Source of the DNA: a virus
Lineage: Duplodnaviria > Heunggongvirae > Uroviricota > Caudoviricetes
IMG/VR virus record: IMGVR_UViG_2939167301_000004
Direction: 5' to 3' (one strand)
Length of the DNA: 12,826 nt
Under the pieces are notes generated by a model. The model had not been told where the DNA came from, searched no databases, and saw only the letters and a list, made by a program, of their open reading frames with translations. The position numbers and the translations under genes are program-made. Position 1 is the stretch's first letter; each line of letters starts with the position of its first letter. Positions 1,978 through 12,826 of the stretch are shown in pieces.

Positions 1978-2641
1978 GACAGCAGTCCTCTGGCCTTAAG
2001 CACTGCTCCCTGCTGGTCTATTTTGTCCTGCCACACCTTGCGCTGTGCCGGTGTGCCTGCCACCTCATAATCCATGTGAGGAAGTGTTGCCGCTGACAGT
2101 CCGGTCAGCCGGAGAACCGGCTCGCCGGTGAGGCTGATTTGCATCTGTTTAATTTTCTGTTCCAGCGATGATTTCACCTGCTGCATGACAGCCTTTTCCG
2201 GTGCGACGTAGCCCTGATGGCCGGTGGTGTTGGCGAGCGGATTTTCCTGTACCAGAATGCTCAGATGCATTGCCCGGACAAGCGCCTCACAGGTTTCATT
2301 CAGGGCGTGTTCCAGCTCATGCTCTGCATACAGACTCAGAAGGTGATGATGTGCCTTCCGGTAGGCGGTGGCCGTGCTGTCACACGCCCCTTTCAGGCGT
2401 TCGCGTTCAAAATTCAGCACCACGGCCAGATTGTCATATTCCTGTACCAGCTCCCGGCGTGCCACGCGCTCAATGTGGCGCTGTTTCAGCTCGTCGCTCA
2501 GGACACCACCGGCTGCACGAAAGGCCGTGCGCCAGTCGTCAGCGTCGTTTCCGTCGGCCTGCGCCAGCGCATTTTTTTCCTGCTCTGTGAACCGCCCCGG
2601 GAATCCTGGAGACTAAACTTCCTGAGAAAGAGGTAAACAGG

Positions 2642-2968
2642 ATGACTAAAAATACTCGTTTTTCCCCTGAAGTCCGTCAACGGGCAGTCCGTATGGTTCT
2701 GGAAAGTCAGGGCGAATATGACTCACAATGGGCGACAATTTGTTCCATTGCTCCAAAGATTGGCTGTACGCCGGAGACTCTGCGTGTCTGGGTTCGCCAG
2801 CATGAGCGGGATACCGGGGGCGGTGATGGAGGGCTCACCACCGCTGAACGTCAGCGTCTGAAAGAGCTGGAGCGTGAAAATCGTGAACTGCGCCGCAGTA
2901 ACGATATCCTTCGCCAGGCTTCCGCTTATTTTGCGAAGGCGGAGTTCGACCGCCTCTGGAAAAAATGA
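2642..2968 (+). CDS. IS3-family transposase OrfA (HTH)
   Basis: 108-aa ORF with the N-terminal HTH and leucine-zipper-like region typical of IS3-family OrfA. An A6 run (2960-2965) sits at the orfA stop / orfB start overlap. Confidence 0.9.
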
Positions 2969-3855
2969 TGCCACTGCTGGATAAGCTGCGTGAGCAGTAC
3001 GGGGTCGGACCGCTATGCAGCGAACTGCATATTGCCCCGTCAACGTATTACCACTGTCAGCAACAGCGACATCATCCGGATAAACGCAGTGCCCGTGCGC
3101 AGCGCGATGACTGGCTGAAGAAAGAGATACAGCGCGTATACGATGAAAATCACAAGGTATACGGTGTGCGTAAAGTCTGGCGTCAGTTGTTACGGGAAGG
3201 TATCAGAGTGGCCAGATGCACTGTGGCACGTCTCATGGCGGTTATGGGACTTGCCGGTGTTCTCCGGGGTAAAAAGGTCCGTACGACCATCAGCCGGAAA
3301 GCCGTTGCCGCAGGCGACCGCGTAAACCGTCAGTTCGTGGCAGAACGACCTGACCAGCTGTGGGTGGCTGATTTTACTTACGTCAGCACATGGCAGGGCT
3401 TCGTCTATGTGGCGTTCATCATTGATGTGTTTGCCGGATACATTGTGGGGTGGCGGGTCTCATCGTCCATGGAGACGACATTCGTGCTGGATGCACTGGA
3501 GCAGGCGTTATGGGCCCGTCGACCGTCCGGCACGGTCCATCACAGTGATAAAGGTTCTCAGTATGTATCGCTGGCCTACACACAGCGGCTTAAGGAAGCC
3601 GGATTACTGGCATCAACAGGAAGTACAGGCGACTCGTATGACAACGCGATGGCGGAGAGCATCAATGGTCTTTACAAAGCGGAGGTAATACACCGTAAGA
3701 GCTGGAAAAACCGTGCAGAAGTGGAACTGGCCACACTCACGTGGGTGGACTGGTATAACAATCGACGATTGCTGGAAAGGCTGGGCCATACTCCTCCGGC
3801 AGAAGCAGAAAAAGCTTATTATGCTTCCATCGGAAACGATGATCTGGCAGCCTGA
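2965..3855 (+). CDS. IS3-family transposase OrfB (DDE catalytic domain)
   Basis: 296-aa ORF in the -1 frame relative to orfA with an rve-type DDE core. The A6 run at 2960-2965 is a candidate -1 programmed frameshift site producing an OrfAB fusion. Confidence 0.9.
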
Positions 3856-4039
3856 GTTCACAGATAAAATACTCTCCAGGAAACCCGGGGCGGTTCACTG
3901 CCCGTTCAATGGCCGTGACGGTCTCATCCATCAGGCGGGCGTTCTCAAGATGGGCGGCTCTGGCCTTTTCCAGTTGTGCCAGTGCGGGTTGCAGATATTC
4001 AGGGATAGTGTGGTCAGACATTTTCCGGCTCCTCGTCAC

Positions 4040-4190: not shown

Positions 4191-4294
4191 TGTTCACCTC
4201 TGTTCACCATAAGAAAAAAGATAAGTAATACAGTAAGTTAAAGGGTGAACAATCGCAGTAATGACTGTTCACCGTCTGTTCACCACTGTTCACC
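4191..4294. repeat. ori-like iteron cluster (six TGTTCACC octamers)
   Basis: TGTTCACC at 4191, 4201, 4266, 4277, 4287 and inverted at 4244-4251, with roughly 10-bp phasing, followed by an AT-rich tract (about 4300-4400). Matches the type I iterons bound by P4 alpha. Confidence 0.6.
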
Positions 4295-6633: not shown

Positions 6634-8967
6634 ATGAAAATGAACGTAACCGCCACCGTCAGCCATGCGCTCGGCCACTGGCCGCGTATTCTCCCGGTGC
6701 TGGGGATTCAGGTGCTGAAGAACCGTCATCAGCCCTGTCCGGTCTGTGGCGGGAGTGACCGCTTCCGTTTTGATGACAGGGAGGGGCGCGGCACCTGGTA
6801 CTGCAATCAGTGTGGTGCCGGTGACGGCCTGAAACTGGTTGAAAAGGTGTTTGGTGTCTCCCCGTCCGACGCGGCCGCAAAGGTGGCTGCCGTGACCGGC
6901 AGCCTGCCCCCGGCTGACCCGGCAGTGACGGCCGCCGCCGGTGCTGAAACAGACGCTGCCCGGAAGAACGCCGCCGCACTGGCACAAACCCTGATGGCAA
7001 AAACTCGTCCCGGAACCGGTAACGCCTACCTGACCCGCAAGGGCTTTCCCGGCCGGGAATGCCGGATGCTGACCGGCACACACAGAGCCGGTGGCGTGAG
7101 CTGGCGTGCCGGTGACCTTGTGGTGCCACTGTATGACGACAGCGGCGAGCTGGTTAACCTTCAGTTAATCAGTGCTGACGGCCATAAGCGCACCCTGAAA
7201 GGCGGACAGGTCAGGGGCACCTGTCACACCCTTGAAGGACAGAATCAGGCCGGAAAACGTCTGTGGATAGCGGAGGGATACGCGACCGCACTTACCGTAC
7301 ATCACCTGACCGGTGAAACGGTGATGGTGGCGCTTTCTTCCGTGAACCTCCTTTCTCTGACCAGCCTTGCCCGGCAGAAGCATCCGGCCTGTCAGATTGT
7401 CCTTGCCGCAGACCGTGACCTCAGCGGTGACGGCCAGAAAAAAGCCGCCGCAGCCGCAGATGCGTGTGAGGGCGTTGTTGCCCTGCCGCCGGTCTTCGGT
7501 GACTGGAATGATGCCTTCACGCAGTACGGCGGGGAGGCCACCCGTAAGGCCATTTATGATGCCATCCGGCCACCGGCTGAAAGCCCGTTCGACACCATGA
7601 GCGAAGCAGAGTTTTCCGCCATGAGTACCAGCGAAAAGGCCATGCGTATCTATGAGCATTACGGCGAGGCGCTCGCGGTCGATGCCAACGGCCAGCTTCT
7701 GTCCCGTTATGAAAATGGTGTCTGGAAGGTGCTGCCGCCACAGGACTTTGCCCGGGATGTGGCCGGGCTGTTTCAGCGTCTGCGCGCGCCGTTCTCCTCC
7801 GGGAAGGTGGCCTCCGTGGTGGACACCCTGAAGCTGATTATTCCGCAGCAGGAAGCCCCCTCCCGCCGCCTGATTGGCTTTCGTAACGGCGTGCTCGACA
7901 CGCAGAACGGCACGTTCCACCCGCACAGTCCGTCACACTGGATGCGCACCCTGTGCGATGTGGATTTCACCCCGCCGGTGGACGGTGAAACGCTGGAGAC
8001 CCACGCCCCCGCGTTCTGGCGCTGGCTTGACCGTGCCGCCGGTGGCCGTGCGGAAAAACGCGACGTGATTCTGGCCGCACTGTTTATGGTGCTGGCAAAC
8101 CGCTACGACTGGCAGCTCTTTCTGGAGGTGACCGGTCCCGGCGGCAGCGGCAAAAGTATCATGGCCGAAATAGCCACCCTGCTGGCCGGGGAGGATAACG
8201 CCACGTCGGCCACCATTGAGACGCTGGAATCCCCGCGTGAACGTGCCGCGTTAACTGGCTTCTCACTGATACGCCTGCCGGACCAGGAAAAATGGAGCGG
8301 CGACGGTGCCGGACTCAAGGCCATCACCGGCGGCGATGCGGTGTCCGTTGACCCGAAATACCGGGATGCGTACTCCACGCACATCCCGGCGGTGATTCTG
8401 GCCGTGAACAATAACCCGATGCGCTTCACCGACCGCAGCGGCGGCGTGTCACGCCGGCGGGTGATTATTCACTTCCCGGAACAGATAGCCCCGCAGGAGC
8501 GCGACCCGCAGCTTAAGGACAAAATCACCCGCGAGCTGGCGGTCATCGTGCGTCACCTGATGCAGAAATTCAGCGACCCGATGCTCGCCCGGTCACTGCT
8601 TCAGTCCCAGCAGAACTCAGACGAGGCACTGAACATCAAACGGGATGCCGACCCGACGTTTGATTTTATCGGCTATCTGGAAACCCTGCCGCAGACCAGC
8701 GGCATGTATATGGGGAACGCCAGTATCATCCCGCGTAATTACCGTAAATACCTCTATCACGCCTATCTGGCCTACATGGAGGCAAACGGCTACCGGAATG
8801 TACTCAGTCTGAAAATGTTCGGGCTGGGGCTGCCGGTGATGCTGAAGGAATACGGACTGAATTACGAGAAGCGCCATACCAAACAGGGGATACAGACCAA
8901 CCTGACGCTGAAAGAGGAAAGCTACGGCGACTGGCTGCCAAAATGTGACGACCCTGCAACAACCTGA
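6634..8967 (+). CDS. alpha: P4 alpha-type primase-helicase
   Basis: 777-aa ORF with an N-terminal Cys4 zinc motif (CPVCGG...CNQCG), a central primase region and a C-terminal P-loop NTPase (GPGGSGKS); AAGGAG Shine-Dalgarno. Confidence 0.9.
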   Translation: MKMNVTATVSHALGHWPRILPVLGIQVLKNRHQPCPVCGGSDRFRFDDREGRGTWYCNQCGAGDGLKLVEKVFGVSPSDAAAKVAAVTGSLPPADPAVTAAAGAETDAARKNAAALAQTLMAKTRPGTGNAYLTRKGFPGRECRMLTGTHRAGGVSWRAGDLVVPLYDDSGELVNLQLISADGHKRTLKGGQVRGTCHTLEGQNQAGKRLWIAEGYATALTVHHLTGETVMVALSSVNLLSLTSLARQKHPACQIVLAADRDLSGDGQKKAAAAADACEGVVALPPVFGDWNDAFTQYGGEATRKAIYDAIRPPAESPFDTMSEAEFSAMSTSEKAMRIYEHYGEALAVDANGQLLSRYENGVWKVLPPQDFARDVAGLFQRLRAPFSSGKVASVVDTLKLIIPQQEAPSRRLIGFRNGVLDTQNGTFHPHSPSHWMRTLCDVDFTPPVDGETLETHAPAFWRWLDRAAGGRAEKRDVILAALFMVLANRYDWQLFLEVTGPGGSGKSIMAEIATLLAGEDNATSATIETLESPRERAALTGFSLIRLPDQEKWSGDGAGLKAITGGDAVSVDPKYRDAYSTHIPAVILAVNNNPMRFTDRSGGVSRRRVIIHFPEQIAPQERDPQLKDKITRELAVIVRHLMQKFSDPMLARSLLQSQQNSDEALNIKRDADPTFDFIGYLETLPQTSGMYMGNASIIPRNYRKYLYHAYLAYMEANGYRNVLSLKMFGLGLPVMLKEYGLNYEKRHTKQGIQTNLTLKEESYGDWLPKCDDPATT

Positions 8968-9008: not shown

Positions 9009-9026
9009 ATCCCGATATCCCCCGCA

Positions 9027-9320
9027 GGTGAACAATCCACTGTTCACCCTTCACCGTATATTCACCCGTTATCATACTGAAATTAAAAGAGAAAAACGAA
9101 AGGTGAACAGTGTGAACAATCAAATCAAAAAAAACTTTTTTCTTCCTGAGTGATTTCAGTACGGGGGATTAATCACCGGTATGAGTCACACCGGCAGAAT
9201 GCCGGAGGTGAAGAATCGAATGTTCACCCTTCACCCATTATTCACCACCTATCACTCTGAAATAAAAGGAGAAAACAGAAAGGTGAACAGTGTGAACAGT
9301 TCTTTCGAAAAAAAATTTTT
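9027..9320. repeat. crr-like region: two ~115-bp direct repeats carrying iterons
   Basis: Units at about 9027-9140 and 9207-9320 (180-bp period), each with GGTGAACA / TGTTCACC / TTCACC(C/G) / TGTGAACA octamers. Confidence 0.65.
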
Positions 9321-9342
9321 TATGTGGATAAAAGATGCACTG

Positions 9343-9369
9343 GTTTGGATCCGAGCTACGGATCCAAAC
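9343..9369. repeat. Perfect 11-bp inverted repeat (GTTTGGATCCG-agcta-CGGATCCAAAC)
   Basis: Read directly from the sequence; contains two GGATCC sites. Confidence 0.6.
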
Positions 9370-9510
9370 TTACTGATTAAAAATGATTTAACTTTCCGAT
9401 TTATTGATGGGCTGAAAATAGATTGGTCAGAAAAACAGTGGGGGCACAAAAGGGGGCATATTTCATTGTTGTGTTTTATTATTTGTTTTTTATCATTAAC
9501 TTATTTTGAT

Positions 9511-9533
9511 GTTTGAGTCCGGCCTTCGCACCA
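9511..9533 (+). other. attP-type core resembling the 3' end of a tRNA-Leu gene
   Basis: GTTTGAGTCCGGCCTTCGCACCA resembles a T-loop / acceptor-stem / CCA 3' end. There is no upstream tRNA body: the 5' T-stem complement is absent. Confidence 0.5.
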
Positions 9534-9547
9534 TCGGAACATCAATA

Positions 9548-9570
9548 GACGTCAACGGACGTCTTTTTTT
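9548..9570 (+). terminator. Rho-independent terminator just after the att core
   Basis: GACGTC-aacg-GACGTC hairpin followed by a T7 run. Confidence 0.5.
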
Positions 9571-9731: not shown

Positions 9732-10833
9732 ATGGCTCTGAGTGATGTGAAGGTTCGTTCGGCTAAGCCTGAAGCAAAAGCCTATAAGCTGACCGACGGT
9801 GAAGGCATGGTTTTGCTGGTTCACCCTAACGGCTCCAAATACTGGCGGCTACGTTATCGCTTTGGCGGTAAAGAGAAGATGCTGGCATTGGGGAAATACC
9901 CCGAAGTGTCGTTGGCGGATGCCAGGGCACGCCGGGATGAGGCTCGTAAGCTTTTAGCTAATGGTGTCGATCCCAGTGAAAACAAGAAAGCTGTTAAGGT
10001 AGAACAGGAACAAGAGGCGATAACGTTGAAGTAGTCGCCAGAGACTGGCACGCCAGCAATCAGAAGTGGTCGGCATCGCATAGCGCTCGTGTTTTGAAAA
10101 GTCTGGAGGATAATCTCTTTACTGCTATCGGTAAGCGGAACATTGCGGAACTGAAGACGCGGGATCTTCTTGTACCCATTAAAGCAGTCGAGTCATCCGG
10201 GCGGCTCGAAGTTGCCGCCCGTTTACAGCAGCGTACTACCGCGATTATGCGCTTTGCCGTTCAGAGCGGCTTAATCGACTACAACCCCGCGCAAGAGATT
10301 GCAGGTGCGGTTGCTACGGCGAAAAGACAGCACCGTGCAGCTCTTGAACTGAACCGTATACCTGAATTACTTCATCGCATAGATCACTATTCTGGCAGAC
10401 CGTTAACTCGGCTGGCGGTTGAACTCACTTTATTGGTTTTCATCCGTTCGAGCGAGCTGCATTTTGCCCGCTGGTCAGAAGTAGATTTTGAAACGGCTAT
10501 GTGGACAATCCCAGGTGAGCGTGAGCAACTGGAAGGAGTCAAGCATTCTCAGCGTGGCTCGAAGATGCGGACACCACACCTTGTACCTTTGTCGCGGCAG
10601 GCCCTAAGTATTTTGGAAAAGATCAAAAGCATGAGCGGAAATTGAGAGCTGATTTTTGTGGGCGATCACGATCCACGTAAGCCGATGAGTGAGAATACGG
10701 TGAACAAGGCTTTGCGCGTAATGGGGTATGACACGAAGGTCGAGGTTTGTGGGCATGGCTTCAGGACGATGGCTTGTAGTTCGTTGATTGAGTCGGGATT
10801 ATGGTCGAGGGATGCGGTAGAGCGGCAGATGAG
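9732..10833 (+). pseudogene. int: P4-type tyrosine integrase, inactivated
   Basis: N-terminal MALSDVKVRSAKPEAKAYKLTDGEG... is a P4-family integrase signature. There is a frameshift near 10020-10035, an in-frame TGA at 10643-10645, and a 3' truncation by IS629 at 10834 (about 368 codons retained; the catalytic C-terminus is missing). Confidence 0.8.
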
Positions 10834-10875
10834 TGAACCGCCCCGGGTTTCCTGGAGAGTGTTTTATCTGTGAAC

Positions 10876-11762
10876 TCAGGCTGCCAGATCATCGTTTCCG
10901 ATGGAAGCATAATAAGCTTTTTCTGCTTCTGCCGGAGGAGTATGGCCCAGCCTTTCCAGCAATCGTCGATTGTTATACCAGTCCACCCACGTGAGTGTGG
11001 CCAGTTCCACTTCTGCACGGTTTTTCCAGCTCTTACGGTGTATTACCTCCGCTTTGTAAAGACCATTGATGCTCTCCGCCATCGCGTTGTCATACGAGTC
11101 GCCTGTACTTCCTGTTGATGCCAGTAATCCGGCTTCCTTAAGCCGCTGTGTGTAGGCCAGCGATACATACTGAGAACCTTTATCACTGTGATGGACCGTG
11201 CCGGACGGTCGACGGGCCCATAACGCCTGCTCCAGTGCATCCAGCACGAATGTCGTTTCCATGGACGATGAGACCCGCCACCCCACGATGTATCCGGCAA
11301 ACACATCAATGATGAACGCCACATAGACGAAGCCCCGCCATGTGCTGACGTAAGTAAAATCAGCCACCCACAGCTGGTCAGGTCGTTCTGCCACGAACTG
11401 ACGGTTTACGCGGTCGCCTGCGGCAACGGCTTTCCGGCTGATGGTCGTACGGACCTTTTTACCCCGGAGAACACCGGCAAGTCCCATAACCGCCATGAGA
11501 CGTGCCACAGTGCATCTGGCCACTCTGATACCTTCCCGTAACAACTGACGCCAGACTTTACGCACACCGTATACCTTGTGATTTTCATCGTATACGCGCT
11601 GTATCTCTTTCTTCAGCCAGTCATCGCGCTGCGCACGGGCACTGCGTTTATCCGGATGATGTCGCTGTTGCTGACAGTGGTAATACGTTGACGGGGCAAT
11701 ATGCAGTTCGCTGCATAGCGGTCCGACCCCGTACTGCTCACGCAGCTTATCCAGCAGTGGCA

Positions 11763-11766
<4 letters not shown>
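10876..11766 (-). CDS. IS3-family transposase OrfB (copy B)
   Basis: 296 aa, one substitution (Q to R) relative to copy A OrfB. Confidence 0.9.

Positions 11767-12826
<1,060 letters not shown>

Follow-up and report, generated by a model that had tools for sequence, protein, structure and literature searches.

A decayed P4-family integrase at the edge of a P4-like satellite is very probably the relic of an older leuX island

The integrase of P4 (NC_001609; 440 aa) has three domains, targets leuX and has its att core about 150-200 bp upstream of its start codon. The order in the P4 record is alpha, crr, attP core and int, and integration therefore separates int from alpha. These two genes have been used as the two delimiters of integrated P4-like elements, and neighbouring elements with integrases of their own have been noted (PMC8628076). 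Where elements form a tandem array at one tRNA gene, the newer element lies beside the tRNA gene, a partial repeat of the tRNA lies between the elements and the older integrase is displaced and decaying (PMC8628076). A related case is the intB pseudogene of Escherichia coli K-12 MG1655 (KpLE2, or 'cryptic prophage PR-Y'), a P4-family gene at the same site (ahr, leuX, integrase) with a pseudogene annotation, after which come an IS and, in K-12-like strains, an island that carries fec.

Here we analyse a broken integrase gene at positions 9732-10833 of a 12,826-nucleotide stretch of viral DNA (IMG/VR record IMGVR_UViG_2939167301_000004; hereafter, the window), and compare its locus with these systems. 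The gene shares with P4 int the three domains, the leuX target and the distance from the att core to the start codon. Unlike P4 int, the window copy is predicted to be non-functional and, in the genomes examined, lies outside the P4-like satellite. From the tandem arrays the locus does not differ in any essential respect; what remains of the older element here is an integrase stump and IS debris. The resemblance to K-12 intB extends to the site, the family, the annotation as a pseudogene and the IS that follows, but the lesions are different ones, and the window gene is separated from leuX by an inserted satellite. We considered K-12 intB as the orthologue of the window gene and rejected it, because a nucleotide identity of ~70% places the two in different allele families.

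Three-frame translation of 9732-10880 shows that the pseudogene occupies 9732-10833 on the plus strand, so that the coordinates given in the earlier note were accurate. Frame 1 opens with an ATG at 9732 and reads MALSDVKVRSAKPEAK...EQEQEAITLK (beginning MALSDVKV) up to a TAG at 10032-10034. This 5′ part of the gene in its original frame (9732-10034, plus strand; Met1-Lys100) encodes the arm-type DNA-binding domain only (Pfam Arm-DNA-bind_3, residues 3-87). The remainder (10035-10833, plus strand) continues in the shifted frame 3 as VEVVARDWHASNQKW... (VEVVARDWH...) and encodes the core-binding domain, followed by the catalytic domain up to five-sixths of its length (Pfam Phage_int_M and Phage_integrase); within it lies SGN*ELIFVGDHD, in which the stop is a TGA. 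The integrase frame ends with ...AVERQMS at 10833, and the terminal repeat of an IS, TGAACCGCCCCGGG, starts at 10834.

When the frame is repaired, the three-domain architecture is present (PF13356, 1e-29; PF22022, 1e-25; PF00589, 1e-15), with PF00589 covered from 4 to 145 of the 172 profile positions, compared with 4-170 or 9-170 in open alleles. Compared with P4 Int, an open orthologue (~88-89% identical to the window gene at the nucleotide level) has 56.9% amino-acid identity over 97% of the length (E value of 8e-153). The PDB matches (3ju0, 2kkv and 3jtz) cover N-terminal and central domains of integrases of this kind, and our search of solved structures for a map of the catalytic residues returned only these domains for the type. 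By its architecture, its homology to P4 Int and the adjoining tRNA-derived att core, the repaired integrase belongs to the P4/CP4-57 type; the window copy lacks the uninterrupted frame and the complete catalytic pocket of that type. Judged from its sequence, 9732-10833 is a P4/CP4-57-type tyrosine integrase gene that is now an ordinary pseudogene.

We pinpointed the lesions by alignment with the copies in AF3 (99.7% identical), STEC2018-553 (open, ~88-89%), MSHS472, TW10690, NCTC9064 and WCHEC005784. One T has been lost from codon Phe99 (TTT to TT at 10026-10027, plus strand), a −1 frameshift that leads to the premature TAG; all four of the copies aligned at this site (AF3, NCTC9064, MSHS472 and STEC2018-553) have TTT. 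Further downstream, a C-to-T change converts the CGA codon of Arg305 to an in-frame TGA (10643-10645, plus strand). An alignment with a full-length P4-family integrase had been proposed in the earlier note as the way to locate the indel and the nonsense codon, and these are the positions at which they fall. The third lesion is a 1310-bp IS629-type element of the IS3 family (10834-12143, minus strand), recognized by its inverted repeats and open reading frames, which follows Ser368 of 421 codons. The truncated gene ends with ...GHGFRTM...ERQMS368, where open alleles go on with HQERSSVRAAYIHKAEHL; the element thus stands in place of His369 and Tyr379 (SHQERSSVRAAYIH in open alleles), and the last 53 codons are gone. 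From their spacing relative to the GHGFR (HxxR) motif, and from what is established for the family, we take these two residues to be the second conserved histidine and the nucleophilic tyrosine. The presumed role of Tyr379 as the catalytic nucleophile draws on motif spacing, as established for lambda Int, and on the Pfam coverage, and with the nucleophile lost, site-specific recombination activity is predicted to be absent. A fourth change is a missense mutation, G to A at 10461 (plus strand; CGT to CAT), which replaces Arg244 by His in SSELRFARW; it distinguishes the window from NCTC9064 and MSHS472 and is common to the window and AF3.

The claim that the integrase carries three inactivating lesions is confirmed by translation, by alignment with open alleles and by Pfam coverage. 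The same holds for what had been concluded from them: selection on the resident integrase, and hence for recombination, is lost, as three independent inactivating lesions and a missense change attest. To call this loss 'long-standing' was an overstatement, because over 9732-10833 only 5 of 1102 positions differ between the window and the uninterrupted, open allele of NCTC9064, and one of the five is private to NCTC9064. At this distance from an open allele the decay of the integrase is recent, and the pseudogene is young in sequence terms.

Left of the integrase lies a P4-like satellite. Its alpha primase-helicase gene (6634-8967, plus strand) is intact and encodes 777 aa, the same length as P4 alpha, with the Pfam domains Zn_Ribbon_Prim, Toprim, D5_N and Pox_D5. 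A repeat and iteron scan identified crr (9022-9321, plus strand) as two 120-bp direct repeats, 60 bp apart, that contain TGTTCACC iterons; as in P4, it sits between alpha and the att core. This octamer, which is bound by alpha in P4, has 12 matches against 0.39 expected, six of them in an ori-like cluster (4191-4294) and five in the crr repeats. The P4 record annotates ori and crr in the same pattern, and the cis-acting replication sites of the satellite accordingly look intact. The window itself opens within ISEc12 (IS21 family; 1-832, with istB at 1-747), the end of which abuts the psu stop codon, and Psu is lengthened from 190 to 200 aa. The same ISEc12-psu junction is found in B1-56 (99.3% identity), the sole close match, in which the satellite has a different tRNA gene, a different integrase and reverse-transcriptase cargo; the comparison hints that the int/cargo module left of ISEc12 has been exchanged. 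In a comparison of the whole window with complete genomes there was no full match, and the best match covers 90%.

The border between the satellite and the integrase is marked by a remnant of leuX. ARAGORN predicted no tRNA in the window; it took a BLAST search with leuX of a related genome to reveal the remnant. It represents the 3′ end of the tRNA gene, GTTTGAGTCCGGCCTTCGCACCA (9511-9533, plus strand), with an exact match of 14 nt at 9515-9528; a 24-nt alignment contains one mismatch and a 1-nt deletion. It lies 199 bp upstream of the integrase ATG, and in MSHS472 and TW10690 an intact leuX stands in that position. Directly after the remnant, where leuX has its own terminator, the sequence reads as a terminator-like hairpin (GACGTC-AACG-GACGTC, then T7; 9548-9570, plus strand), and an equivalent hairpin and T-run follow the intact leuX of MSHS472. 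The segment at 9511-9533 is a hybrid att core, being both the attR of the P4-like satellite and the former attL of the resident island. An open reading frame of 111 aa (9181-9516, plus strand), without a Pfam match, overlaps both crr and the att arm region and corresponds in size and position to P4p05 of P4, an ORF predicted by GeneMark only. Its counterparts are annotated inconsistently, as 'hypothetical protein' or, in AF3, as 'integrase', and it is probably not a real gene.

Taken alone, the order alpha, crr, att and int in the window, which is that of the circular P4 map, would also fit a single element. It speaks for reading the pseudogene as the satellite's own integrase, so that the satellite would be locked in place while alpha stays open, and it can be added that the satellite carries damage of its own, with IS629 in sid and ISEc12 against psu. 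In the integrated state, however, the att core is the boundary of an element, and the genomes that we aligned diverge left of this core and are identical right of it. The same integrase region is found behind three unrelated elements, namely the satellite of the window, a retron-carrying P4-like element with a DUF927 primase (WCHEC005784) and an island of the cbtA/yeeU type (NCTC9064). MSHS472 and TW10690 have nothing inserted: there the integrase comes straight after an intact leuX and is succeeded by an IS and fecEDCBA. The integrase is therefore independent of whatever occupies the slot between it and leuX. Moreover, near-identical satellites in EJN001 (100%), AF3 (98%) and PRO_A-1478 (98.9%) have an intact integrase of their own at the opposite end, beside leuX, and this is a different gene, with just ~72-75% nucleotide identity to the window integrase over a stretch of ~185 nt. 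The sister satellite of B1-56, at another tRNA gene, ends after alpha and has no integrase there. That the pseudogene was the satellite's own integrase is, on this evidence, very improbable. In all likelihood it is instead a relic that once served as the integrase of an older leuX island and that tandem insertion of the satellite has displaced: it lies outside the att core at which the satellite ends, and it persists next to other elements or none. From the near-identical satellites we infer that the satellite in the source genome keeps its own integrase at its far end, outside the window. The earlier note had described an immobilized element in which the replication genes stay open; this is not supported, because alpha is a gene of one element and the dead integrase a gene of another. 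As the pseudogene lies beyond the att boundary, its decay is uninformative about the mobility of the satellite. As a separate observation, the integrase of MSHS472 and TW10690 (MSHS472 locus L007, 8128-9321) is a mosaic, the first ~400 bp of which resemble the divergent (~88%) allele of STEC2018-553 and the rest of which is identical to the window allele; this indicates recombination between integrase alleles at leuX.

We searched exact 80-mers centred on each of the lesions in 5,426 complete E. coli genomes; because the lesions are discrete mutations, a chance expectation does not apply. The frameshift (TT) was found in 198 genomes, the TGA stop in 248 and the junction between int and IS629 in 199, whereas the ancestral CGA was found in 5. 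Genomes that carry this type of integrase number roughly 280. AF3 has the TGA and R244H without the frameshift and IS629, and all three window lesions are absent from NCTC9064, MSHS472 and TW10690. These four genomes share another, IS911-like insertion of the IS3 family after codon ~393, with a product of 397 aa. The frequencies bear directly on whether the gene could be otherwise intact, with the frameshift, the stop or both being artefacts of sequencing or assembly, as the loss of a single base from a homopolymer, a typical class of error, might suggest. The run of T is just three long, however, and the number of genomes with the frameshift tracks the number with the IS629 junction: all three sampled frameshift genomes have the junction, and sampled genomes without the frameshift lack it. 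The catalytic tyrosine is, in addition, already lost through the IS truncation alone. Recurrence of exactly the same alleles in ~200-250 independently sequenced and assembled complete genomes rules out assembly error, and an error of either kind has a vanishingly small probability.

Genuine lesions might still leave a useful gene, either through recoding (frameshifting or read-through of the TGA) or because a free arm-binding domain of 100 aa interferes with related integrases at leuX. The open reading frame at 9732-10034 does retain a complete Arm-DNA-bind_3 domain together with its native start and upstream region, and leuX sees frequent integration by elements whose integrases are related. 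We nevertheless consider a useful product very unlikely, as the frameshift and the stop are derived changes that the nearest alleles do not have, Tyr379 would be missing from any read-through product and nothing points to conservation other than by clonal descent. The more specific idea that the 100-aa ORF is expressed, binds arm-type sites and, as a domesticated decoy, modulates the integration or excision of satellites at leuX is speculative; we found no evidence for it and think that it has scarcely any chance of being right. An ordinary pseudogene, left behind by an older island, thus remains our reading of 9732-10833.

The element that truncates the integrase has the features of IS629, with a length of about 1.3 kb, terminal repeats that start with TGAAC and overlapping orfA and orfB (108 and 296 aa); its 25-nt inverted repeats are 92% complementary, and in another strain RefSeq assigns this copy to the IS629 family and annotates a programmed frameshift. 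The copy at 10834-12143 lacks the 3-bp target-site duplication that a simple insertion should leave (GAG on one side and GTA on the other), its right flank is a fragment of IS100 istB rather than int, and a tblastn search of the window, including the region beyond IS629 and that by the second IS629 copy, did not find the missing C terminus and 3′ end of int. Together these three results point to deletion or IS-mediated recombination after the insertion of IS629, and such an event would also have erased an earlier IS junction at the 3′ end of the gene.

A second IS629-type copy (2588-3897, plus strand) is 99.5% identical to the first (7 of 1310 positions differ), is flanked by a CTG/CTG target duplication and splits sid of the satellite ~40 codons from its start. 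This copy is missing from the otherwise identical locus of EJN001 and is therefore a very recent hop. The two copies are in inverted orientation and bracket 6.9 kb that comprise most of the satellite and the pseudo-integrase; such a pair could mediate inversion, and relative to EJN001 we saw none. We also rejected an inversion between the two copies in the window, given that the target-site duplication of the copy in sid is intact and that the C terminus of int is absent from the window. In WCHEC005784 (locus L001, 13277-16760), the copy of IS629 that truncates int is itself split by a group II intron with an ltrA reverse transcriptase/maturase. Right of IS629, the window ends with an N-terminally truncated istB fragment of the IS100 type and a fragment of a TetR-family gene (12144-12826), which in related genomes are followed by an IS3, a BCCT transporter gene and lpxM/virK/capU. 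This segment is IS-riddled debris of the older island.

These observations can be ordered into a history. An older genomic island, which in other strains resembles K-12 KpLE2 in carrying the iron-citrate operon fec, would once have had its integrase directly beside the leuX tRNA-Leu gene. A P4-like satellite would later have integrated into leuX by means of its own integrase, encoded at the satellite's far end; this integration would have restored an intact leuX on the left and left the displaced 3′ end of the old tRNA gene as the junction between the alpha/crr end and the integrase of the resident island. The lesions in that integrase would then form a nested series. The earliest may have been the IS3-family (IS911-like) insertion near the 3′ end, which is known from close relatives only and was presumably erased in the window; R244H and the stop at Arg305 would have followed, and the loss of T from codon Phe99 and the insertion of IS629, with adjacent DNA lost (His369, Tyr379 and everything downstream), would have come last. 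We infer this order as the most economical arrangement of the alleles.

The broken integrase is ordinary and was already known from annotation, since RefSeq entries for many genomes label this same copy 'frameshifted; internal stop; incomplete'. Decayed P4-family integrases beside tRNA genes are common, and this one brings little biological news. Its nested allele frequencies (the stop, and within it the frameshift and the IS629 junction) provide a small lineage marker for a clade of E. coli. The lesson is rather one for annotation: where elements are arrayed in tandem at a tRNA site, an integrase that comes after alpha, crr and att is part of the neighbouring element, and its decay is therefore no ground for inferring that the satellite is immobile.
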